The position numbers and the translations under genes were made by a program. From Mobula hypostoma (Eukaryota): a stretch of DNA of 64,000 nucleotides. The stretch lies in the NCBI RefSeq assembly GCF_963921235.1, contig NC_086108.1, positions 73,472,001 through 73,536,000 on the forward strand, read 5' to 3'. Of this stretch, positions 21,746-55,269 are shown piece by piece (position 1 is the stretch's first letter; each line of letters starts with the position of its first letter). The notes beneath the pieces are model-generated. The model was not told the DNA's origin. It saw nothing but the letters and a program-made list of their open reading frames with translations, and did no database searches.

Positions 21746-22989
21746 TATAAAAAACACCCAGTAAAATTATTGACTCCTTCCTATTCCTAACTTCCACCCA
21801 CAGAGACTCTGTAGACAACCCTTCCATGACTTCCTCCTTTTCTGCAGCCATGACACTAATTCTGATCAGCAGTGCCACGCCCCCACCTCTTTTGCCTCCC
21901 TCCCTATCCTTTCTGATACATCTAAAGCCTGGCATTTGAAGTAGCCATACCTGCCCCTGCACCATCCAAGTCTCTGTAATGGCCACAACATCATAGCTCT
22001 AAGTGCTGATCCACAATCTAAACTCATTCGCTTTATTCATGATACTCCTCGCATTAAAACAGACACATCTCAAACCATCGGACTGAGTGCGTCCCTTCTC
22101 TATCACCTGCCTATCCTCCCTTTTGCACCGCCTCCAAGCTTTCTCTACTTGCGAGCCAACCTCCCTTTCCTCCGTCACTTCAGTTCGGTTCCCACCCCCC
22201 AGCAATTCTAGTTTAAACTCTCCCCAATAGCCTTAGTAAACTTCTCCCCCACCCCCACCCCCAGGATATTGGTCCTCCTCGGATTCAAGTGCAACCCGTC
22301 CTTTTTGTACAGGTCACACCTGCCCCAGAAGAGGTTCCAATGATCCAGAAATCTGAATCCCTGCCCCCTGCTCCAATTTCTCAGCCACGCATTTATCCTC
22401 TGCCTCATTCTATACCGATACTCACTGTCACGTGGCTCAGGCAGTAATCCTGAAATTATTACCTTTGAGGTCCTGCTTCTCAACTTCTTTCCTAAGTCCC
22501 TGTAGTCTGTTTTCAGGACCCCCTCCCTTTTCCTACCTATGTCGTTGGTACCAATATGCACCACGACCTCTGCCTGTTCTCTTTCCCACTTCAAGATATC
22601 ATGGACGTGATCAGAAAAATCCCGGACCCTGGTACCTGGGAGGCAAACTACCATCCACGTTTCTTTCCTGCATCCACAGAATCACCTATCTGACCCCGTA
22701 ACTATAGTGTCCCCACATATTTGACAGGAAACACACCGACTTTAATACTACTCAGAGCAGTATCTTACTTTGATGACATGATCCATTTCCAGTTTCATCG
22801 GCCAGAAGATGCAATGGTTTAAATTACTTTCTCAATTTTCCTGGATCAGCTTTTCACTCCCATTCACAACCTTCCCCTAAGGATGATAATGCTACAAGGA
22901 AATAAGAGGACCCATCATTCCTTTTTTGCATTATTTATCTATTTTTGTAACTTTTTTTTTATGTTTTGCACTGTACTGCTGCCCATGTG

Positions 22990-27637: not shown

Positions 27638-30487
27638 TTAGAACATAGAACATAGAATAGTACAGCACAGTACAGGCCCTTCGGCCCACAATGTTGTGCC
27701 GACCCTCAAACCCTGCCTCCCATATGCCCCCACCTTAGATTCCTCCATATACCTGTCTAGTAGTCTCTTAAACTTCACGAATGTATCTGCCTCCACCACT
27801 GACTCAGGCAGTGCATTCCACGCACCAACCACTCTCTGAGTAAAAAACCTCCCTCTAATATCCCTCTTGAACTTCCCACCCCTTACCTTAAAGCCATGTC
27901 CTCTTGTATTGAGCAGTGGTGCCCTGGGGAAGAGGCACTGGCTGTCCACTCTATCTATTCCTCTTATTATCTTATACACCTCTATCATGTCTCCTCTCAT
28001 CCTCCTTCTCTCCAAAGAGTAAAGCCCTAGCTCCCTTAATCTCTGATCATAATGCATTCTTTCTAAACCAGGCAGCATCCTGGTAAATCTCCTCTGTACC
28101 CTTTCCAATGCTTCCACATCCTTCCTATAGTGAGGTGACCAGAACTGGACACAGTACTCCAAATGTGGCCTAACCAGAGTTTTATAGAGCTGCATCATTA
28201 CATCGCGACTCTTAAACTCTATCCCTCGACTTATGAAAGCTAACACCCCATAAGCTTTCTCAACTACCCTATCCACCTGTGAGGCAACTTTCAGGGATCT
28301 GTGGACATGTACCCCGAGATCCCTCTGCTCCTCCACACTACCAAGTATCCTGCCATTTACTTTGTACTCTGCCTTGGAGTTTCTCCTTCCAAAGTGTACC
28401 ACCTCACACTTCTCCAGGTTGAACTCCATCTGCCACTTCTCAGCCTGCTTCTGCATCCTAACAATGTCTCTCTGCAACCTTTGACAATTCTCTACACTAT
28501 CTACAACACCACCAACCTTTGTGTCGTCTGCAAACTTGCCAACCCACCCTTCTACCCCCACATCCAGGTCGTTAATAAAAATCACGATAAGTAGAGGTCC
28601 CAGAACCGATCCTTGTGGGACACCACTAGTCACAATCCTCCAATCTGAATGTACTCCCTCCACCACCACCCTCTGCCTTCTGCAGGCCAGCCAATTCTGA
28701 ATCCACCTGGCCAAATTTCTCTGGATCCCATGCCTTATAACTTTCTGAATAAGCCTACCATGTGGAACCTTGTCAAATGCCTTACTAAAATCCATATAGA
28801 TCACATCCACTGCACTACCCTCATCTATATGCCTGGTCACCTCCTCAAAGAACTCTATCAGGCTTGTTAGACACGATCTGCCCTTCACAAAGCCATGCTG
28901 ACTGTCCCTGATCAGACCAAGATTCTCTAAATGCCTATAGATCCTATCTCTAAGAATCTTTTCCAACAGATTTCCCACCACAGACGTAAGGCTCACTGGT
29001 CTATAATTACCCAGACTATCCTTACTACCTTTTTTGAACAAGGGAACAACATTCGCCTCCCTCCAATCCTCCGGTACCATTCCCATGGACAACGAGGACA
29101 TAAAGATCCTAGCCAGAGGCTCAGCAGTCTCTTCTCTTGCCTCGTGGAGCAGCCTGGGGAATATTCTGTCAGGTCCTGGGGACTTATCTGTCCTAATGTA
29201 TTTTAACAACTCCAACACCACCTCTCCCTTAATATCAACATGCTCCAGAACATCAACCTCACTCATATTGTCCTCACCATCATCAAGTTCCCTCTCATTG
29301 GTGAATACCGAAGAGAAGTATTCATTGAGGACCTCGCTCACTTCCACAGCCTCCAGGCACATCTTCCCATCTTTATCTCCAATCAGTCCTACCTTCACTC
29401 CTGTCATCCTTTTTTTCTTCACATAATTGAAGAATGCCTTGGGGTTTTCATTTACCCTACTCGCCAAGGCCTTCTCATGCCCCCTTCTTGCTCTTCTCAG
29501 CACCTTCTTAAGCTTCTTTCTTGCTTCCCTATACTCCTCAATAGACCCAGCTGATCCTTGCTTCCTAAACCTCATGTATGCTGCCTTCTTCCACCTGACT
29601 AGATTTTCCACCTCACTTGTCACCCATGGTTCCTTCACCCTACCATTCTTTATCTTCCTCAGCGGGACAAATTTATCCCTTACATCCCGCAAGAGATCTC
29701 TAAACATCGACCACATGTCCATAGTATATTTCCCTGCAAAAACATCATCCCAATTCACACCCGCAAATTCTAGCCTTATAGTCTCATAATTTGCCCTTCC
29801 CCAATTAAAAATTTTCCTGTCCTCTTTGATTCTATCCTTTTCCATGATAGTTATAAAGGCCAGAGAGCGGTGGTCACTGTCCCCCAGATGCTCACCCACT
29901 GAGAGATCTGTGACCTGACCCGGTTCATTACCTAGTACTAGATTTAGTATGGCATTCCCCCTGGTCGGCCTGTCCACATACTGTGACAGGAATCCATCCT
30001 GGACACACTTAACAAACTCTGCCCCATCTAAACCCTTGGAACTAATCAGGTGCCAATCAACATTAGGGAAGTTAAAGTCACCCATGATAACAACCCTGTT
30101 ATTTTTGCACCTTTCCAAAATCTGCCTCCCAATCTGCTCCTCTGTATCTTTGCTGCTACCAGGGGGCCTATAGAATACCCCTAGTAGAGTAACTGCTCCC
30201 TTCCTGTTCCTGACTTCCACCCATATTGACTCAAAAGAGGTTCCTGCTACATTACCCACCCTTTCTGTAGCTGTAATAGTATCCCTGACAAGTAATGCCA
30301 CCCCTCCTCCCCTTTTTCCACCCTCTCTATCCCTTTTAAAGCACTGAAATCCAGGAATATTGAGAATCCATTCCTGCCCTTGTGCCAGCCAAGTCTCTGT
30401 AATGGCCACTACATCATAATTCCATGTATGTATCCAAGCTCTCAGTTCATCACCTTTGCTCCTGATGCTTCTTGCATTGAGGTACAT
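27638..30487 (-). CDS. CR1 ORF2 protein (APE endonuclease plus reverse transcriptase), uninterrupted 949 codons
   Basis: YLNARS, AITETW, GDFN, SDH (endonuclease); QHGF, DFSKAFD, GVPQGSVLGP, FADD (RT). No internal stops. Confidence 0.9.
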   Translation of the reverse strand: MYLNARSIRSKGDELRAWIHTWNYDVVAITETWLAQGQEWILNIPGFQCFKRDREGGKRGGGVALLVRDTITATERVGNVAGTSFESIWVEVRNRKGAVTLLGVFYRPPGSSKDTEEQIGRQILERCKNNRVVIMGDFNFPNVDWHLISSKGLDGAEFVKCVQDGFLSQYVDRPTRGNAILNLVLGNEPGQVTDLSVGEHLGDSDHRSLAFITIMEKDRIKEDRKIFNWGRANYETIRLEFAGVNWDDVFAGKYTMDMWSMFRDLLRDVRDKFVPLRKIKNGRVKEPWVTSEVENLVRWKKAAYMRFRKQGSAGSIEEYREARKKLKKVLRRARRGHEKALASRVNENPKAFFNYVKKKRMTGVKVGLIGDKDGKMCLEAVEVSEVLNEYFSSVFTNERELDDGEDNMSEVDVLEHVDIKGEVVLELLKYIRTDKSPGPDRIFPRLLHEAREETAEPLARIFMSSLSMGMVPEDWREANVVPLFKKGSKDSLGNYRPVSLTSVVGNLLEKILRDRIYRHLENLGLIRDSQHGFVKGRSCLTSLIEFFEEVTRHIDEGSAVDVIYMDFSKAFDKVPHGRLIQKVIRHGIQRNLARWIQNWLACRRQRVVVEGVHSDWRIVTSGVPQGSVLGPLLIVIFINDLDVGVEGWVGKFADDTKVGGVVDSVENCQRLQRDIVRMQKQAEKWQMEFNLEKCEVVHFGRRNSKAEYKVNGRILGSVEEQRDLGVHVHRSLKVASQVDRVVEKAYGVLAFISRGIEFKSRDVMMQLYKTLVRPHLEYCVQFWSPHYRKDVEALERVQRRFTRMLPGLERMHYDQRLRELGLYSLERRRMRGDMIEVYKIIRGIDRVDSQCLFPRAPLLNTRGHGFKVRGGKFKRDIRGRFFTQRVVGAWNALPESVVEADTFVKFKRLLDRYMEESKVGAYGRQGLRVGTTLWAEGPVLCCTILCSMF

Positions 30488-30500
30488 ACATTTCAGCCCT

Positions 30501-30737
30501 CAACAGGAATTCTGCAGATGCTGGAAATTCAAGCAACACACATAAAAGTTGCTGGTGAACGCAGCAGGCCAGGCAGCATCTCTAGGAAGAGGTGCAGTCG
30601 ACGTTTCAGGCCGAGACCCTTCATCAAGGTCCTGACTAGTCCTGACGAAGGGTCTCGGCCTGAAACGTCGACTGCACCTCTTCCTGGAGATGCTGCCTGG
30701 CCTGCTGCGTTCACCAGCAACTTTTATGTGTGTTGCT
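30501..30737 (-). mobile_element. Fold-back Penelope-like element with perfect 14-bp TSD, inside the CR1 ORF2 5' region
   Basis: TSD TACATTTCAGCCCT at 30487-30500 and 30738-30751; near-perfect inverted arms of ~95 bp. Confidence 0.9.
30638..30673 (+). ncRNA. Minimal type I hammerhead ribozyme motif
   Basis: AGUC-CUGACGA-AGG-GUCUCGG-CCU-GAAAC-GUC^GACU. The mirror copy on the minus strand (~30596-30628) has a UUGAUGA core. Confidence 0.75.
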
Positions 30738-32326
30738 TACATTTCAGCCCTTCTACCTTACTGCCTTTACACCGTTTATTCTGCTTCTCTTTCCTCAAAA
30801 CCTCTCTGTATGTTAGATCTGGCTTTACTCCATGTACTTCTTTCACTGCTCTATTGCTCTGGGTCCCATCCCCCTCGCAAATTAGTTTAAACCCTCCCGA
30901 ACCATGCTAGCAAACCTACCTGCAAGGATATTGCTCCCCCTCGAGTTCAGGTGCAACCCATCCAATCTGTACAGGTCCCACCTTCCCCAGAAGAGATCCC
31001 AATGATCTAAAAATCTAAAACCCTGCTCCCTGCACTAAAGCACCTCACACCCAGTGAAACAACAGTTTTGTCCAGTTCTTCTTTTCTATCTCAGGATTGA
31101 GGATAACTTCCTATCTGGCTTTGTGAGTTATGATGTGACAAAACAGACCAATGTAGGAATTCCAGATTCTTCCACAGATAGGCCAAGAAGTGTCTGATGG
31201 GGTGAGTGAACTGTTTGTAAGATGGTATGCTCATCCCACTGTTTACACTGGGCATGTGTGTTCTCCAGATGGATAGATATGAGCCTCCCTGTGCCAAAAT
31301 TCCTGTCCATGGACACATAGCCAGAGAATCCCAGAAGTCAGACTTTAAGTAAATCCCCAGATCTGTTTCTAGTCTACACAGTAAATTTACCCAAATGCAT
31401 AGGACTGAACATTTAAATTTCCTCTAAAATTTGTCATTATATTTCTTGATCGAGATTTTTTCTTCTTGGAGAATAATCTTTTACCTACAGTGAGTTGTTG
31501 CACAGAAGATTTGAGTAATTTGGGCCCCATGTAGTTAAAATACCATTGTATATCCATACATTCATATGTATGTTTTCTTTGATACCAATCAATGCAATTT
31601 GCTTTGGGTTAATCCTGGCTGCCCTTGCTTAATTGTAAATTTAATCCCTTTGGAATGGTGTCATCCAGCTGCATTAAAAGTGCTGTGGATAATAGAAACC
31701 TTCAGCACTTTCAGAAAGTTGAAATTTGTAAAGAGTGGATGCAACACAAGTTCTTTTTCAGTAAAACTTGAATAAAACAGACTCATAATTACACCATAAC
31801 ATTGGAAGTAGAAAATCCTGAATACATGTGCTGATCTAGAAGGAATTCCCAAGAAATGGATTACAAGTCTTTCTGAGGCTGCCTGGTAACAATAACAACA
31901 AAATCTTATTAAATTCAACTTAATAAAAAAGGGAAAAAAACTCATTGTGGTTAGTGTTTCAGTAGAGATAAACAGAGTTGAATTTCTATCTCATTTTAAG
32001 AAGCAGCCTGCAATAACTTGCAATATACGCTTTGTGGCCACATCATTAAGTACCTCACGTCCCTAATAAAGTGACCAATAAGTTTATGCCCATGGTCCAT
32101 ATTGTGCATCTCCACACTACTATTGCAATGCATGTTTATTTGAGTGACTGCCTCCTTCCAGTGGGTTTAAACCAGTCTGGCCATTCTCTTTGGACCTCTC
32201 TCATTAACAAAGCATTTTCACCCATGGAACTGCCGCTCACTGGATTTTTTTTTGTTGTTTGTTTGTTTTACACCATTCTCTGTAATCTCTAGAGACTGTT
32301 GTGTGTGAAAATCCCAGAAAATCCCA

Positions 32327-44690: not shown

Positions 44691-44805
44691 ACTTGAAATG
44701 ATGCAACAATGACTGCTCCATTACTGCACTCCTATTCCATCCCTTTGGGTACTTCTTCAGGAAGGTAATTCATGTATCTCTGAAAATGGAAAGGATAGAA
44801 GAGTA

Positions 44806-44964
44806 ACACACATAAAAGTTGCTGGTGGACGCAGCAGGCCAGGCAGCATCTCTAGGAAGAGGTGCAGTCGACGTTTCAGGCCGAGACCCTTCGGCCACCA
44901 GCAACTTTTATGTGTGTTGCTTGAATTTCCAGCATCTGCAGAATTCCTGTTGTTTGCGTTTTTA
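44806..44964 (+). mobile_element. Fold-back Penelope-like element with perfect 16-bp TSD
   Basis: TSD AAAGGATAGAAGAGTA at 44790-44805 and 44965-44980. The inversion point lies inside the hammerhead core. Confidence 0.88.
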
Positions 44965-45013: not shown

Positions 45014-47962
45014 ACCACTTTTCAACGTAATTGTATAACGGCTAACAGTATTGCAAAAGCGAGCCAGAAGGCTTTGTGTGTCAATGCAAGGAGCATTCGT
45101 AACAAGGTGGATGAATTAAAAGTGCAGATTGTTATTAATGAATATGATATAGTTGGGGTCACAGAGACATGGCTCCAGGGTGACCAGGGATGGGAGCTCA
45201 ACATTCAAGAATATTCAATATTCAGGAGGGATAGACATGAAAGAAAAGGAGGTGGGGTAGCATTGTTGGTTAGAAAGGAGATTAACGCAATAGAAAGGAA
45301 GGACATTAGTCGGGAGGATGTGGAATGGATATGGGTAGAGCTGCATAACACTAAGCGGCAGAAAGCGCTGGTGGGAGTTGTGTACAGGCCACGTAACAGT
45401 AGTAGTGAGGTTGGGGATGGTATTAAACAGGAAATTAGAAATGTGTGCAATAAAGGAACAGCAGTTATAATGGGTGACTTCAATCTACATATAGGTTGGG
45501 TGAACCAAATTGGTAAGTGTGCTGAGGAAGAGGATTTCTTGGAATGTATGCGGGATGGTTTTTTGAACCAACATGTCGAGGAACCAACTAGACAGCAGGT
45601 TATTCTAGACTGGGTATTGAGCAATGAGGAAGGGTTAATTAGCAATCTTGTAGTGAGAGGCCCCTTGGGTAAGAGTGACCATAATATGGTGGAATTCTTC
45701 ATTAAGATGGAGAGTGACATAGTTAATTCAGAAACAAAGGTTCTGAATTTAAAGGAGGGTAACTTTGAAGGTATGAGACGTGAATTAGCTAAGATAGACT
45801 GGCAAATGACACTTAAAGGGTTGACGGTGGATATGCAATGGCAAGCATTTAAAGATCACATGGATGAACTACAACAATTGTTCATCCCAGTTTGGCAAAA
45901 GAATAAATCAAGGAAGGTAGTGCACCCGTGGCTGACAAGGGAAATTAGGGATAGTATCAATTCCAAAGAAGAAGCATGCAAATTAGCCAGAAAAAGTGGC
46001 TCACCTGAGGACGGGGAGAAATTCAGAGTCCAGCAGAGGAGGACAAAGGGTTTAATTAAGAAGGGGAAAAAAGATTATGAGAGAAAACTGGCAGGGAACA
46101 TAAAAACTGACTGTAAAAGCTTTTATAGATATGTGAAAACAAAAAGATTGGTTAAGACAAATGTAGGTCCCCTACAGAGAGAAACAAGTGAATTGATTAT
46201 GGGGAGCAAGGACATGGCAGACCAATTGAATAACTACTTTGGTTCTGTCTTCACTAAGGAGGACATAAATAATTTTCCGGAAATAGTAGGGGAAAGAGGG
46301 TCCAGTGAGATGGAGGAACTGAGGGAAATACATGTTAGTAGGGAAGTGGTGTTAGGTAAATTGAAGGGATTAAAGGCAGATAAATCCCCAGGGCCAGATG
46401 GTCTGCATCCCAGAGTGCTTAAGGAAGTAGCCCAAGAAATAGTGGATGCATTAGTGATAATTTTTCAAAACTCTTTAGATTCTGGACTAGATCCTGAGGA
46501 TTGGAGGGTGGCTAATGTAACCCCACTTTTTAAAAAAGGAGGGAGAGAGAAACTGGGGAATTATAGACCGATTAGCCTGACATCAGTGGTGGGGAAAATG
46601 CTAGTATCAGTTATCAAAGATGTGATAACAGCACATTTGGAAAGCGGTGAAATCATCGGACAAAGTCAGCATGGATTTGTGAAAGGAAAATCATGTCTGA
46701 CGAATCTCATAGAATTTTTTGAGGGTGTAACTAGTAGAGTGGATAGGGGGGAAGCAGTGGATGTGGTATATTTGGATTTTCAAAAGGCTTTTGACAAGGT
46801 CCCACACAGGAGATTAGTGTGCAAACTTAAAGCACACAGTATTGGGGGTAAGGTATTGATGTGGATAGAGAATTGCTTGGCAGACAGGAAGCAAAGAGTG
46901 GGAATAAACGGGACCTTTTCAGAATGGCAGGCAGTGACTAGTGGGGTGCCGCAAGGCTTAGTGCTGGGACCCCAGTTATTTACAATATATATTAATGACT
47001 TAGATGAAGGAATTAAATGCAGCATCTCCAAGTTTGCGGATGACACGAAGCTGGGTGGCAGTGTTAGCTGTGAGGAGGATGGTAAGAGGATGCAGGGTGA
47101 CTTGGATAGGTTAGGTGAGTGGGCAAATTCATGGCAGATGCAATTTAATGTGGATAAATGTGAGGTTATCCACTTTGGTGGCAAGAACAGGAAAACAGAT
47201 TATTATCTGAATGGTGGCCAATTAGGAAAGGGGAGGTGCAACAAGACCTGGTGTCATTGTACACCAGTCATTGAAAGTGGGCATGCAGGTACAGCAGGCG
47301 GTGAAAAAGGCGAATGGTATGCTGGTATTCATAGAAAGAGGGTTCGAGTACAGGAGCAGGGAGGTATTACTACAGTTGTACAAGGCCTTGGTGAGACCAC
47401 ACCTGGAGTATTGTGTGCAGTTTTGGTCCCCTAATCTGAGGAAAGACATCCTTGCCATATAGGGAGTACAAAGAAGGTTCACCAGATTGATTCCTGGGAT
47501 GGCAGGACTTTCATATGATGAAAGACTGGATCGACTAGGCTTATACTCGTTGGAATTTAGAAGATTGAGGGGTGATCTTATTCAAACATATAAAATCCTA
47601 AAGGGATTGGACAGGCTAGATGCAGGAAGATTGTTCCTGATGTTGGGGAAGTCCAGAACGAGGGGTCACAGTTTGAGGATAAAGGGGAAGCCTTTTAGGA
47701 CCGAGATTAGGAAAAACTTCTTCACACAGAGAGTGGTGAATCTGTGGAATTCTCTGCCACAGGAAACAGTTGAGGCCAGTTCATTGGCTATATTTAAGAG
47801 GGAGTTAGATATGGCCCTTCTGGCTAAAGGGATCGGGGGTATGGGGGGAAGGCTGGTACAGGGTTCTGAGTTGGATGATCAGCCATGATCATACTGAATG
47901 GCAGTGCAGGCTCGAAGGGCCGAACGGCCTACTCCTGCACCTATTTTCTATGTTTGTATGTT
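45014..47962 (+). mobile_element. CR1 LINE, 5'-truncated at the start of ORF2; EN plus RT pseudogene
   Basis: 813-codon ORF 44993-47434 (CVNARS, TETW, GDFN, SDH, FADD), frameshifted near 47230; CR1 tail at ~47945-47962. Confidence 0.95.
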
Positions 47963-49109
47963 AAAACACTTGGATCTTAAAAAGTAGAAAGAATATCTGC
48001 CCCTTCTTTGATCTCTGGTGGCACAATGGCTGAGCCTATTATCTTTTAGATGGCTCACCATGCGGACACAGTAGGTAGTATTAGCAGGATACCTTCATCT
48101 ACAAGATTTATGGAAGGGAGCTAGTGACCATGTTGCAATGCTAGGGTATGTATGATATGTCCACAGATTAATGATAACTGTGTGAGGACAGCAATGCATC
48201 TGTTTATAGATAGGATTTGTTGCTATTTTCACTGACCTAAACCAGAAAGAAGAGGCTATTGTTTATTCCATTAGGTCATTATTTTTGGCATCAATCCCTT
48301 GGCCATCTCAAACTGATCCTAGTTTATTTCAGTCCTTGATAGCTTCCCTGGGCTCTTGAACATGCTGGAAATGTCTACTATTATCCACATGTTGATGGAA
48401 GAAGCTACACTCTCCCAGGTCTCTGCTGATGTCATTCCTGCCAGTGGCACCAAGTTGCACATTGACAATAAGCAGTCAAGATTCAGGACTCATCAAGGTA
48501 GGGTAGAAGTGGGAAGGACAGTTCTCTGACTGATGTGATACAAACCAGGATCACAATCTCAATGTAAGACCAAACTATAAATAACAAAAACCACACCATT
48601 GTTTATTGACCTCTGCTCCATCTTCAATATTATAATTACAAGATCTTGGCCAAGAAGAACAACAGATACAAATCAATGGATTCAAATAAATCACGGACCA
48701 GAGCCACTAAGGTGCTCTTATAGGTCGGTCAGATGATTCATAGCCAATAACTCTGGAATGCAACATTTGAACTGGTAAGGAATGAATATAGAAGCAGATG
48801 CTTCAATTGAAAAAGTTGCGATAACTCTCCAACCACCAGAGACCAACTATTGTGGATGTGGAGTACTCCATTGGCACATGGAAATCATACCAGGATCACA
48901 AGGAACACATGCCAGCATAGACTCTTTTTCGGAGTATTTCCTTTTCTACTATTTGACTGTTCATGGAGGCTCAGGAAATCTTAGTAGGTGTGCACACAGG
49001 TATTCGGTTGTGTAAATTCAAGTGCTTTTCCATAGAGAAAATAAAGGTACTTGTCAGTAATTACAGATTCTCTCTGAGCCTCTCTGGTTATTATCACTAA
49101 GGGGCAGAT

Positions 49110-49387
49110 CCTTGTAACAAAGCAAACTCATCACTGGACTCCAGACCTAGGAGTCAATGTCAACTGGATCCTTGTCTTCCTGACCAACAGACTGCAATGG
49201 GTAAGAAAACGCAGCAATACCACTGCCACAATTGTTCTCTCTTCTTCCCTCTACCACTGGGTAGAAGATACAAAAGTGCATACCACCAGGCTCAGTGGCA
49301 GCTTCTACTTCGCAGTTAAAATACTAGTAAATGATTCTTTACTACAATGGGATGGACTCCTGACCTCACAATCTACCTCATTATGAT
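49110..49387 (+). mobile_element. Old Rex1-type fragment; its 3' UTR continues at 53757-53940 after the CR1 insertion
   Basis: 'tgtcaactggatccttgtcttcctgaccaacagactgcaat' (NWILxFLTNRxQ); the UTR reads continuously as 'gacctcacaatctacctcattatgat|cttgcacc'. Confidence 0.7.
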
Positions 49388-52300
49388 AGAAACATAGAAA
49401 ATAGGTGCAGGAGTAGGCCGTTCGGCCCTTCGAGCCTGCACCGCCATTCAGTATGATCATGGCTGATCATCCAACTCAGAACCCTGTACCAGCCTTCCCC
49501 CCATACCCCCGATCCCTTTAGCCAGAAGGGCCATATCTAACTCCCTCTTAAGTATAGCCAATGAACTGGCCTCAACTGTTTCCTGTGGCAGAGAATTCCA
49601 CAGATTCACCACTCTCTGTGTGAAGAAGTTTTTCCTAATCTCGGTCCTAAAAGGCTTCCCCTTTATCCTCAAACTGTGACCCCTCGTTCTGGACTTCCCC
49701 AACATCGGGAACAATCTTCCTGCATTTAGCCTGTCCAATCCCCTTAGGATTTTATACGTTCCAATAAGGTCCTCCCTCAATCTTCTAAATTCCAACGAGT
49801 ATAAGCCTAGTCGATCCAATCTTTCATCATATGAAAGTCCTGCCATCCCAGGAATCAATCTGGTGAACCTTCTTTGTACTCCCTCTATGGCAAGGATGTC
49901 TTTCCTCAGATTAGGGTAGGGGACCAAAACTGCACACAATACTCCAGGTGTGGTCTCACCAAGGCCTTGTACAACTGTAGTAGTACCTCCCTGCTCCTGT
50001 ACTCGAATCCTCTTTCTATGAATGCCAGCATACCATTCGCCTTTTTCACCATCTGCTGTACCTGCATGCCCACTTTCAATGGCTGGTGTACAATGACATC
50101 CAGGTCTCGTTGCACCTCCCATTTTCCTAATTGGCCACCATTCAGTTAATAATCTGTTTTCCTGTTTTTGCCACCAAAGTGGATAAACTCACATTTATCC
50201 ACATTAAATTGCATCTGCCATGAATTTGCCCACTCACCTAACCTATCCAAGTCACCCTGCATCCTCTTAGCGTCCTCCGCACAGCTAACACTGCCGCCCA
50301 GCTTCGTGTCATCCGCAAACTTGGAGATGCTGCATTTAATTCCCTCATCCAAGTCATTAATATATATTGTAAACAACTGGGGTCCCAGCACTGAGCCTTG
50401 CGGCACCCCACTAGTCACCGCCTGCCATTCTGAAAAGGTCCCATTTATTCCCACTCTTTACTTCCTGTCTGCCAAGCAATTCTCCATCCACATCAATACC
50501 TTACCCCTAATACCGCGTGCTTTAAGTTTGCACACTAATCTCTTGTGTGGGACCTTGTCAAAAGCCTTTTGGAAATCCAAATATACCACATCCACTGGTT
50601 CTCCCCTTTCCACTCTGCTAGTTACATCCTCAAAAAATTCTATGAGATTCGTCAGACATGATTTTCCTTTCACAAATCCATGCTGACTTTGTCCGATCAT
50701 TTCACCACTTTCCAAATGTGCTGTTATCACATCCTTGATAACTGACTCCAGCAGTTTCCCCACCACCGACGTTAGGCTAACCGGCCTATAATTCCCCGGT
50801 TTCTCTCTCCCTCCTTTTTTAAAAAGTGGGGTTACATTAGCCACCCTCCAATCCTCAGGATCTAGTCCAGAATCTAAAGAGTTTTGAAAAATTATCACTA
50901 ATGCATCCACTATTTCTTGGGCTACTTCCTTAAGCACTCTGGGATGCAGACCATCTGGCCCTGGGGATTTATCTGCCTTTAATCCCTTCAATTTACCTAA
51001 CACCACTTCCCTACTAACATGTATTTCCCTCAGTTCTTCCATCTCACTGGACCTTCTGTCCTCTACTATTTCTGGAAGATTATTTATGTCCTCCTTAGTG
51101 AAGACAGAACCAAAGTAGTTATTCAATTGGTCTGCCATGTCCTTGCTCCCCATAATCAATTCACCTGTTTCTGTCTGTAGGGGACCTACATTTGTCTTAA
51201 CCAATCTTTTTCTTTTCACATATCTATAAAAGCTTTTACAGTCAGTTTTTATGTTCCCTGCCAGTTTTCTCTCATAATCTTTTTTCCCCTTCCTAATTAA
51301 GCCCTTTGTCCTCCTCTGCTGGACTCTGATTTTCTCCCAGTCTTCAGGTGAGCCACTTTTTTCTGGCTAATTTGTATGCTTCTTCTTTGGAATTGATACT
51401 ATCCCTAATTTCCCTTGTCAGCCACGGGTGCACTACCTTCCTTGATTTATTCTTTTGCCAAACTGGGATGAACAATTGTTGTAGTTCATCCATGTGATCT
51501 TTAAATGCTTGCCATTGCATATCCACCGTCAACCCTTTAAGTGTCATTTGCCAGTCTATCTTAGCTAATTCACGTCTCATACCTTCAAAGTTACCCTTCT
51601 TTAAATTCAGAACCTTTGTTTCTGAATTAACTATGTCACTGTCCATCTTAATGAAGAATTCCACCATATTATGGTCACTCTTACCCAAGGGGCCTCTCAC
51701 GACAAGATTGCTAATTAACCCTTCCTCATTGCTCTAACCCAGTCTAGAATAGCCTGCTGTCTAGTTGGTTCCTCGACACATTGGTTCAAAAAACCATCCC
51801 GCATACATTCCAAGAAATCCTCTTCCTCAGCACACTTACCAATTTGGTTCACCCAATCTATATGTAGATTGAAGTCACCCATTATAACTGCTGTTCCTTT
51901 ATTGCACACATTTCTTATTTCCTGTTTTAATACCATCCCCAACCTCACTACTACTGTTAGGTGGCCTGTACACAACTCCCACCAGCGTTTTCTGCCCCTT
52001 AATGTTATGCAGCTCTACCCATATTGATTCCACATCCTCCCGACTAATGTCCTTCCTTTCTATTGCGTTAAACTCCTCTCTAACCAGCAATGCTACCCCA
52101 CCTCCTTTTCTTTCATGTCTATCCCTCCTGAATATTGAATATCCCTAAACTTTGAGCTCCCATCCTTGGTCACCCTGGAGCCATGTCTCTGTGATCCCAA
52201 CTACATCATATTCATTAATAACAATCTGCACTTTTAATTCATCCACCTTGTTACGAATGCTCCTTGCATTGACACACAAAGCCTTCTGGCTCGCTTTTAC

Positions 52301-53756
52301 AACACTCTTCGCCCTTATACAATTATGTTGAAAAGTGGCCCTTTTTGATTTTTGCCCTGGATTTGCTGGCCTGCCACTTTTACTTTTCACCTTACTGCTT
52401 TTTGCTTCTACCCTATTTTTACACCCCTCTGTCTCTCTGCACTGGTTCCCATCCCCCTTTTGTGAACTAACCTCCTCTCGCCTAGCCTCTTTAATTTGAT
52501 TCCCACCCCCCAACCATTCTAGTTTAAAGTCACCTCAGTAGCCCTCGCAAATCTCCCTGCCAGGTTATTGGTTCCCCTAGGATTCAAGTGTAACCCGTCC
52601 TTTTTGTACAGGTCACACCTGCACCAAAAGAGGTCCCAATGATCCAAAAAGTTGAATCCCTGCCCCCTGCTCCAATCCCTCAGCCACGGATTTATCCTCC
52701 ACCTCATTGCATTCCTACTCTCACTGTTGCGTGGCACAGGCAGTAATCCCGAGATTACTACCTTTGCGGTCCTTTTTCTCAACTCCCTCCCTAACTCCCT
52801 GTATTCTCCTTTCAGGACCTCTTCCCTTTTCCTACCTATGTCATTGGTACCTATATGTACCACAACCTCTGGCTCCTCACCTTCCCACTTCAGGATATCT
52901 TGGACGCGATCAGGAATATCCCGGACCCTGGCACCAGGGAGGCAAACTACCATCTGGGTCTTTGGACTGCATCCACAGAATCGCTTATCTGACCCCCTTA
53001 CTATTGAGTCCCCTATTACAACTGCCCTCCTCTTCCTTTCCCTACCCTTCTGAGCTACAGGGCCAGACTCTGTGCCGGAGGCACGGCCACTGTCACTTCC
53101 CCCGGGTAAACTGCTCCCCCAACAGTACTCAAACAGGAGTACTTATTGTCAAGGGGCACAGCCACTGGAGTACTCTCTATTACCCGACTCTTCCCCTTCC
53201 CCCTCCTAACCATGACCCACTTGTCTGCCTCCCGTGGCCCCGGTGTGACCCGTGGCCTGTAACTCCACTCTATCAACTCCTCACTCTCCCTGACCAGACG
53301 TAGGTCATCGAGCTGCAGCTCCAGTTCCCTAACGTGGTCCCTTAGGAGCTGCATCTCGGCGCACCTGGCGCAGATGTGGACGTCCAGGAGGCTTGGAGAC
53401 TCCAGGGCCTCCCACATCCGGCACCTAGAACAACAAACTGCCCTCACACTCATACTGCCCCTCTCCTCAAATAACAACAAAAAATGAATACCAAACCATC
53501 CTTGCCTCGCCCGTTTCCGCCTAAGCCCGTTGAGCTGAAGCCCTTAAGCCTTCACTCTGCTCCCGGCTCACTCCGTAGCCTGCAAACTACACTGTCTGCT
53601 GTATGAGGCTCTGTTCTTTTTAAATCTTCCGCGCTTCACTGCCTGACGTCACACACCTGTGCAGTCCCGCCTCTCTGAACGCCGATGGAAAAAACGAAAA
53701 ATTCAAAAATGGCTTCCTCCGCACTCCCGCTCCGATTCTCAGACTTCCTTTTTCGA
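49388..53756 (-). mobile_element. Full-length CR1 LINE (~4.37 kb): 5' UTR, ORF1 (Cys-rich N-terminus plus SGNH esterase), ORF2 (EN-RT), all disrupted
   Basis: ORF1 pieces 53055-53480 (AVCCSRCRMWE..HICARC) and 52519-52953 (esterase); ORF2 fragments from 52513 to 49457; ATGAT duplicated at 49383-87 and 53757-61. Confidence 0.95.
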
Positions 53757-55269
53757 ATGATCTTGCACCTTACTATTTACTGGCACCGAACTTTCTCTTA
53801 AGATGTTACAGTTTATTCTGTATCATTTTTTTACTTTGTTCTACCTCAATGTAATGATTTGATCTGTACAAACAGTATGCAAGACAAGGTTTTTCATTTT
53901 TTCTCTGTATATGTGACTATAATAAACCGATTCCATTTCTAATTCATGTTAAGAATAAGCAAGTTAGGACTAAAACATAGAAAAACTTCTTCACTCTGAC
54001 CATAAATCTTAGGAATTCCCTACCAAGGAAGCCAAAATAATTGACTGCATTGAGGATGATATGAATTACTCACCCTATTTCAGTTGTAATGCTAATGCTT
54101 GAGACAACTGTAATTCTTTGCTATTAACACGTGCTAATGAGGGAAACATCATGATTGGTTGTTATGGTGCATTACAATTGCTCACATTTTTGTACAAGAT
54201 GTGGACAATGCCCTAACAGCTCTGGATCAGTCTGGTGACAGCTACCCTGTAAAGCCACCGCAATCTGTGATTTTACGAGCAATTAAATTTCTAGGCAAGA
54301 AGTTTCATCCAACCGACCTACTGTTGCCACAACAAAGTTTAATTGCTTATTTGATTCAAGTAGATTCTGTTGAGAAGAAGTTTCCTTGCATAAAGGTATT
54401 AAGTAATGTCTTTCTGGATCAAGAACGGGCAAACAGGACTGTGATGTCATTATTCAAGAAAGATTCCATTAAACTTAGCTGAAAAGGTCAATGATGCTGA
54501 AAGTAGGAATGAAAGAAATAATCTTTCTATTGTGAACCTCTCAAAAAACACAAAACCACAAGTATACACAGTTACGTTCAGTCTGACTACATACAATGGA
54601 GATGAGATCCTTACATTGACAGTCGAATTTTCGTCATCATGCCCCAGTGCCTCAGACTGTTCTCTAAGTTAGAAATAATAATATAATGAAGCTACAGTCC
54701 TTAAGAGAGGAGGAGGAGTGGTTATTCAGTCAGGTACAAGCAATGATTTTTCATGCCTTGACTGCTAAATTAAACAGAAATATGGGACAGAATTTACATC
54801 TGCTGAGTAAGCCCTCTAACATGCTGAGAGTTATGAAATTTTACTTACACAAAATATAATATCCATGACCCAAGTGGCACTTGCTTATTTCAGAATTTGC
54901 AAGGCATCTTGTAATTCATCAAAACTTTTCGGGATGAGCCTAATGAGGATCAGATGGTCAGGAAATAAGGGGGAGTTTTTCAGGAAATTAACTTTGGTCG
55001 CACTCAGGTGCACATACCCTAATGTGCAATTTTTCCCCACTCCGACGATTTTCCACCCACTTACCTTATCTGTGTTCCAACTCCAGACGAGCAAGGTTCT
55101 GCAGTGGGAGCACAGGATCAATACACCAGCCCATTCACATTAGCTTGTCTTTATCTCCTCACTTCACAGTAATTTTTATTTGGAAGATAACCATTACATT
55201 ATTGTTGGAGTGTTTAACTGTTATTTTTCTCCCAGTTGTAGCTGCTATTCTGACTCTTATACCAACACA

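Follow-up and report, generated by a model that had tools for sequence, protein, structure and literature searches.

The CR1 LINE at positions 49386-53758 of the window, by which we mean the whole 64,000-nucleotide stretch of Mobula hypostoma DNA analyzed in the present study, raises the question of how ribosomes reach ORF2, which encodes the endonuclease and reverse transcriptase (EN-RT). The start of ORF2 lies in the -1 frame relative to ORF1 and lacks an ATG. Based on sequence comparisons, we consider it likely that a programmed -1 frameshift at a conserved, in-phase heptamer produces an ORF1::EN-RT fusion in esterase-type CR1 LINEs. The layout of the junction, its phase, the nucleotide conservation of the heptamer, the replacement of the heptamer by A_AAA_AAC at a single locus, and the absence of start codons from most lineages were observed. 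The frame relation, the conservation, the missing ATG, and the replacement support the esterase-ORF1::EN-RT fusion proposed in the first-pass annotation of this DNA.

The flagged junction and its element

The features of the element and of the CR1 junctions in the window are as follows.

49386..53758, minus strand: CR1 LINE with an esterase-type ORF1, full-length but decayed
52519..53453, minus strand: ORF1, Cys-rich N-terminus and SGNH esterase (PF13472), ending ...VTLN*
52535..52537, minus strand: TGA located two codons upstream of the heptamer and shutting the -1 (ORF2) frame
52522..52528, minus strand: slippery heptamer T_TTA_AAC (plus-strand GTTTAAA), in X_XXY_YYZ phase with ORF1
52519..52521, minus strand: ORF1 stop TAG, adjoining the 3' end of the heptamer
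52502..52511, minus strand: G-run GGGGGG(T)GGG, candidate stimulator, beginning 10 nt past the heptamer
52148..52528, minus strand: ORF2 start in the -1 frame, with an 86-codon linker, NARS (52270), and TETW (52192), without ATG
50461..51366, minus strand: ORF2 fragment, reverse transcriptase start (PF00078, E 8.9e-16)
30882..30891, minus strand: junction GGT TTA AAC TAA of a second CR1 subfamily
22208..22217, minus strand: junction AGT TTA AAC TAG of a third CR1 subfamily

Membership in CR1 was judged on an SGNH esterase ORF1, an ORF2 with APE and RT, and a short-repeat 3' end, and the element has all three. ORF1 matches Pfam Lipase_GDSL_2 (PF13472, E 1.8e-15), and its closest named relatives are from rays and sharks (top identity 90%). 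APE precedes RT in ORF2, as NARS/TETW and RVT_1 in the flagged copy and as Exo_endo_phos and RVT_1 in a relative within the window (27641-30499). The 3' terminus (...TTTCTATGTTTCTAT at 49400-49386) consists of short tandem repeats without poly(A) or LTRs, which we take to be the CR1 type of tail. The family is large, with 3136 first-look candidates for the flagged junction.

The flagged element shares 93-94% identity with the sister copies L334 and L335 across 4261-4384 nt. The first-pass annotation had called it a full-length copy, which holds for its length (49386-53758), but not for its intactness. ORF1 is interrupted by a frameshift near 53140-53060, and ORF2 has a premature stop at 52147-52145, 127 codons past the heptamer, as well as more breaks. 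A 5'-truncated sister copy lies inverted approximately 1.4 kb from the element (45015-47963 on the plus strand versus 49386-52338 on the minus strand, 94-99% complementary). In the CR1 with the junction at 30891, the linker/ORF2 start is split by two head-to-head short SINE-like repeats (30501-30745), and this repeat also borders the copy at 44771-44960.

Re-reading of the minus strand (...GAG GTG ACT TTA AAC TAG AAT GGT TGG GGG GTG GGA) confirmed that ORF1 ends ACT TTA AAC TAG with T_TTA_AAC at plus-strand positions 52522-52528. From the heptamer, the -1 frame reads FKLEWLGGGNQ...NARS...TETW for 127 codons without Met. The earlier description of this frame as running straight into the endonuclease without Met was accurate regarding Met; however, the 86-codon linker intervenes. 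The G-tract placed about 6 nt downstream does begin there (GGTTGGGGGGTGGG from +7), but its conserved portion is the G-run at +11 to +16. An X_XXY_YYZ heptamer in phase and a downstream ORF open in the -1 frame, both expected of programmed frameshifting, were found at this junction.

Since a TGA closes the -1 frame two codons 5' of the heptamer, in 49/49 sister copies with an open linker, a start codon further upstream cannot reach ORF2 in the flagged family. The ATG near the ORF1 stop of the flagged copy is in the +1 frame and encodes 8 codons, and an AUG overlapping or adjoining this stop in the ORF2 frame (SART1-type stop-start) is absent from the copy. The in-phase heptamer precedes the stop at all three CR1 ORF1 ends of the window (22217, 30891, and 52528). 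The background frequency of TTTAAAC is 1.2e-4 per base (800 kb of evenly spaced genome stretches).

Nucleotide conservation of the heptamer

TTTAAAC was present in 30/30 close copies fetched from the genome, a count that says little because the copies were picked by similarity. A tail-blind survey was performed on 80 evenly spaced 10-kb stretches with an esterase profile from which the ORF1 tail had been omitted. Its 16 readable ORF1 ends comprised ten exact TTTAAAC, five one-change variants, and one deleted junction; the variants and the deletion fit the neutral decay of dead copies, as expected. Over all fetched loci, 166 CR1-like junctions formed 29 clusters, 11 of them with at least two copies. 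TTTAAACTAR was found in 63/69, 19/22, 18/19, 14/15, 7/8, 4/4, 3/3, 2/2, 2/2, 2/2, and 2/2 copies of these multi-copy clusters.

Synonymous conservation was assessed in 18 lineages (10 from this genome and 8 external, including L141), each represented by a single real copy whose ORF1 end is open. Of the 29 clusters, this set omits five strays belonging to larger families, four decayed singles without a clean heptamer (L067, L075, L079, and L101b), and two singles with the heptamer and no open ORF1 (L087 and L122), and L154 was handled separately. The last Leu codon of ORF1 was TTA in 18/18 lineages (background for Leu, 23/167), and the last Asn codon was AAC in 18/18 (background for Asn, 31/80). 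The base preceding TTA AAC was T in 17/18 lineages over ten amino acids, with the exception yielding G_TTA_AAC. The ORF1 stop directly followed the heptamer in 18/18 lineages (TAG in 13, TAA in 5).

On a tree of these sequences, parsimony gave 0 changes for TTA, 0 for AAC, and 1 for the preceding T, compared with 13 at positions one and two of the codon to which this T belongs. In 17 control columns, where the amino acid is conserved, the mean was 4.9 changes (range 1-9, none at zero). The first-pass annotation had stated that free synonymous variation of the Leu-Asn codons across subfamilies would speak against frameshifting, and neither codon changed. The junction shows nucleotide conservation beyond the need of the protein, as is expected of a programmed -1 frameshift signal.

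These data also bear on the explanation that the protein needs a C-terminal Leu-Asn, or that ancestry alone is shared, with the codons being a by-product. The lineages are related and, therefore, not independent, and an LN end is also found in some bacterial SGNH proteins. However, 5-6 codons occur at the other invariant Leu columns and both Asn codons at the other invariant Asn column, while the third base before Leu stays T through 13 changes of its amino acid on the tree. Three bacterial SGNH esterases ending in LN use TTA AAC, CTG AAC, and TTG AAT (TTA AAC in 1/3). The ORF1 identity to the external loci is only 31-42%. We regard this explanation as largely refuted, with hardly any probability left to it.

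Synonymous variation is also low at a second site, the Gly codon of the (I/F)SG(L/I)L motif (ORF1 alignment column 12, approximately 250 nt upstream of the heptamer), which is GGA in 17/18 lineages.

Heptamers in other animals

A metagenome scan yielded 79 loci, the majority of which were bacterial esterases or unrelated ORFs without an endonuclease behind them. Nine external loci had a clean LN* end and an endonuclease match, with T_TTA_AAC in 8 and G_TTA_AAC in 1. The endonuclease was in the -1 frame at 8/9 of these loci; in the out-of-register exception (L155), the G-run is one base shorter. Loci in host-contaminated genome bins had an identical junction, with AAG in one copy. At one of them, L349, 962 uninterrupted codons follow from the heptamer, and the first Met is codon 59, past NARS. 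Animal CR1 sequence occurs in the bacterial genome bins G001 (L260-L271), G002, and G003 and in P0025, which is labelled Pseudomonas aeruginosa; this points to host contamination of those records.

One locus, L154, combines an esterase ORF1 with a -1-frame endonuclease but lacks LN. It carries TCA AAA AAC, an in-phase A_AAA_AAC, at the same distance from DGLH as T_TTA_AAC elsewhere, and its ORF1 stop comes ten codons later. The -1 frame opens three codons before the heptamer and reaches the endonuclease through a linker without ATG. Downstream, a C-rich stretch (CCCTCCATCCCGCCC, within L154:508-549) is found in place of the G-run, reminiscent of PCBP-type stimulators.

The ORF1 tails of proteins were compared among the best 150 profile matches at 50% clustering, which gave 94 readable tails and 59 after collapsing. 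An LN end was found in 28, a GN end in 8, KN was carried by 3, and 20 had none of these. LN-ending named proteins belong to rays, sharks, sturgeon, two turtles, a snake, and a monitor lizard. The residue before LN has T/C-ending codons in 12 tails and A/G-ending codons in 1, and the corresponding numbers before GN are 0 and 7 (all Gln); Fisher p is 4e-5 with KN included and without correction for kinship. This pattern is what T_TTA_AAC and G_GGA_AAC require, with G_GGA_AAC being deduced from the protein only. Six proteins keep KN at the same position and have longer tails. Neither viral contigs nor 101 genomes around G001 yielded DNA of the GN-ending lineages, and four genomes reached through the loci contained the LN type only.

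Tandem slippage predicts that one canonical heptamer can take the position of another, as seen for A_AAA_AAC in DNA and for GN and KN in proteins. Canonical slippery sites include U_UUA_AAC of coronavirus 1a/1b, the MMTV-type A_AAA_AAC, and the PEG10-type G_GGA_AAC. Seven other ORF1 tails have FL/FF at a similar position (P0157, P0169, P0176, P0184, P0192, P0197, and P0202) and could hide heptamers of the U_UUU_UUA/C type. Two L2-like esterase loci, L149 (1134-1138) and L151 (2502-2506), lack a heptamer and instead carry TGATG at the ORF1 stop, and their downstream sequence looks decayed; the overlap suggests that reinitiation may replace frameshifting in that group.

Start codons, the downstream element, and known systems

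Among the open-linker sister copies of the flagged family, 7/49 carry ATG as linker codon 37, a position occupied by GTG in most. Linker ATGs are absent from the lineages with 14, 8, and 5 open copies and from six single-copy lineages, and occur at unrelated positions in five other lineages (5/8, 3/3, 2/2, 2/2, and 1/1 open copies). One of these five lineages, represented by L326 (1/18 representatives), has an ORF1 stop that overlaps a start codon of the ORF2 frame (UAAUG). Near-cognate GTG, TTG, and CTG codons are frequent in linkers, and TTG/GTG are common to the members of a family. No start codon position is common to all lineages in the linker comparison. In most lineages, ORF2 initiation upstream is excluded because the -1 frame is shut 1-6 codons 5' of the heptamer.

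These observations are relevant to termination-reinitiation in the style of L1 and SART1, in which ribosomes would terminate and then resume translation in the -1 frame, from an AUG or near-cognate codon, to give free ORF2p; the conserved heptamer, stop, and G-run would serve as a ribosome-retention signal. We consider this route unlikely. It would account for the stop fixed right behind the heptamer in 18/18 lineages, and it is in keeping with the linker ATGs of several lineages, the family-shared TTG/GTG, and the UAAUG of one lineage, which is its only direct support. L1 ORF2 tolerates the loss of its AUG. The first-pass annotation assigned termination/reinitiation to L1 and SART1, in agreement with the accessible part of PMC2881922, in which ORF2 initiation in both elements is unconventional and dependent on ORF1. 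However, reinitiation does not predict the X_XXY_YYZ pattern or a swap to A_AAA_AAC or GN, and it is at odds with the lack of a shared start position, with the L154 heptamer ten codons ahead of its stop, and with the six KN proteins with longer tails. The linker ATGs, the UAAUG, the frequent near-cognate codons, the missing downstream fold described below, and the 20/59 tails without LN, GN, or KN stand against the frameshift. The lineage with the stop-start overlap (L304, L305, L307, and L326 of this genome; TTTAAAC TAATG) has both the heptamer and the overlap, and could use both routes.

Downstream of the stop, G is present at +12 and +14 in 18/18 lineages and at +11 in 16/18. The G-run starts 10 nt past the heptamer in most lineages and 7 nt past it in L145 and L153. 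Both +11 and +14 fall on third codon positions of the -1 frame; at such positions, G makes up 26% of the linker background, and Gly is encoded by mixed codons. The constraint on the G-run, therefore, likely acts on the RNA. Folding of the 18 lineages, without an explicit pseudoknot model, revealed neither a hairpin nor a pseudoknot downstream of the heptamer (0/18 with z < -2 at 45, 70, or 100 nt; mean z -0.39, 0.00, and 0.20, respectively), and a strong first stem of a classical stem-loop or pseudoknot 5-9 nt downstream was absent.

A quadruplex, upstream pairing, and long-range pairing were also rejected as structural roles of the G-run. A G-quadruplex appeared in the MFE of only 3/18 lineages, and several lineages have too few G-tracts. 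Upstream pairing partners of the G-run were inconsistent, and the run was unpaired in local folds. No common site of long-range pairing was found inside the element in 19 junction-holding long stretches of 21. A C-rich stretch near nt 690-710 of 18S rRNA was among the top three pairing sites in 15/18 lineages, with pairing energies mostly near shuffled controls (8 shuffles at a coarser step).

G-runs are known splicing and hnRNP H/F elements. A non-translational motif, such as a splice acceptor, a TATA-like internal promoter, or a packaging/protein-binding element, with ORF2 made from a shorter RNA, would agree with RNA-level constraint on the G-run and with the resemblance of TTTAAACTAG to a branch point plus AG. 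However, TAA in 5/18 lineages leaves no AG, the motif is phase-locked to ORF1 at any tail length (22-39 aa) and is exchanged for other slippery heptamers, and a shorter RNA would still be without an AUG in most lineages. We regard such a motif as very improbable. None of the listed carriers of the sequence was recorded as RNA. Contigs from four runs presumed to be RNA, a type of data that cannot settle this point, showed neither an indel in the heptamer nor a joint that recurred at the junction. Two of 16 long matches (P0232 and P0234) join esterase and endonuclease in frame; these look like single-copy indels and were not counted as natural fusions.

We favor the frameshift, which may operate as follows. 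At UAG/UAA, most ribosomes would terminate, freeing ORF1p. A smaller share would stall while tRNA-Leu and tRNA-Asn occupy UUA AAC, shift back onto UUU AAA, and continue, giving an ORF1::EN-RT fusion of approximately 1,300 aa (about 1,270-1,330 aa) with the junction peptide ...T-L-N/K-L-E-W-L-G. Slipping would set a high ORF1p:ORF2p ratio, similar to Gag:Gag-Pol. The pause may be caused by the stop next to the heptamer, by the G-run beginning 10 nt downstream, or by both; as no RNA structure is evident, a bound protein could mediate the effect. This step is the weakest part of the proposal, and our best guess for the stimulator is the adjacent stop together with a protein on the G-run.

In its gene content, the element resembles vertebrate canonical CR1 with an esterase ORF1 (subgroup 7, ORF1 type IVB, PMC4120745; survey PMC13343379, both from their accessible parts): a Cys-rich/esterase ORF1, APE and RT in ORF2, a short-repeat tail, and a high copy number. 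The accessible parts of PMC4120745, PMC13343379, PMC11303007, and PMC3905857 do not mention "frameshift" or describe the mechanism of ORF2 translation; that of PMC4255032 uses the word only for decay, and CR1 is not mentioned in that of PMC5009743. No report of CR1 frameshifting was found in the literature searched, which did not extend to supplements or to the CR1 and SART1 papers of 1997-2005. The principle is not new for non-LTR elements, since the APE-type Dictyostelium elements TRE5-A and TRE3-A need a -1 frameshift for ORF2 translation, as stated in the accessible part of PMC5911963. These elements belong to a different clade and have a different ORF1 without an esterase, and the stated -1 frameshift is the likeness. 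Similar to CR1, L1 and SART1 have a bicistronic RNA and an ORF2 dependent on ORF1 translation (PMC2881922, accessible part); in contrast, they give free ORF2p, whereas CR1 mostly has no start codon and keeps a slippery heptamer.

CR1 shares with the -1 frameshifting of viruses and LTR elements an in-phase X_XXY_YYZ heptamer, a structural gene upstream, and the polymerase gene in the -1 frame. It differs in having no detectable stem-loop or pseudoknot, a stop adjoining the heptamer, and an unstructured G-run at a 10-nt spacer. The C-rich motif of PRRSV also has a 10-nt spacing. Frameshifting in PRRSV is stimulated by protein (nsp1beta-PCBP), and natural quadruplex stimulators of frameshifting are not known, both according to the accessible part of PMC5009743. 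The short, single-stranded, structure-free downstream motif is common to PRRSV and CR1; the CR1 motif is G-rich, and its trans-acting protein is only hypothetical.

As a broader and tentative proposal, in which our confidence is limited, a Gag-Pol-like fusion may extend across the clade, from sharks and reptiles to distant animals, through interchangeable canonical heptamers and, in place of an RNA fold, stimulation by the adjacent stop together with a single-stranded G-run that keeps a 10-nt spacing and is probably protein-bound. CR1 is the dominant retrotransposon of most vertebrates, according to the accessible part of PMC13343379. If frameshifting occurs, it would fix the ORF1p:ORF2p ratio and, in the manner of retroviral Gag-Pol, keep the RT attached to a membrane-binding esterase. 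The many CR1 ORF2s that lack a start codon ahead of the endonuclease would thereby also be explained, and the annotation and engineering of CR1 ORF2 would change. Because the CR1 signal has neither a stem-loop nor a pseudoknot, it may reveal an unusual stimulator; a protein-bound G-run with a stop would give the most abundant vertebrate LINE a frameshift stimulator of a new class. The junction signal is approximately 25 nt long.
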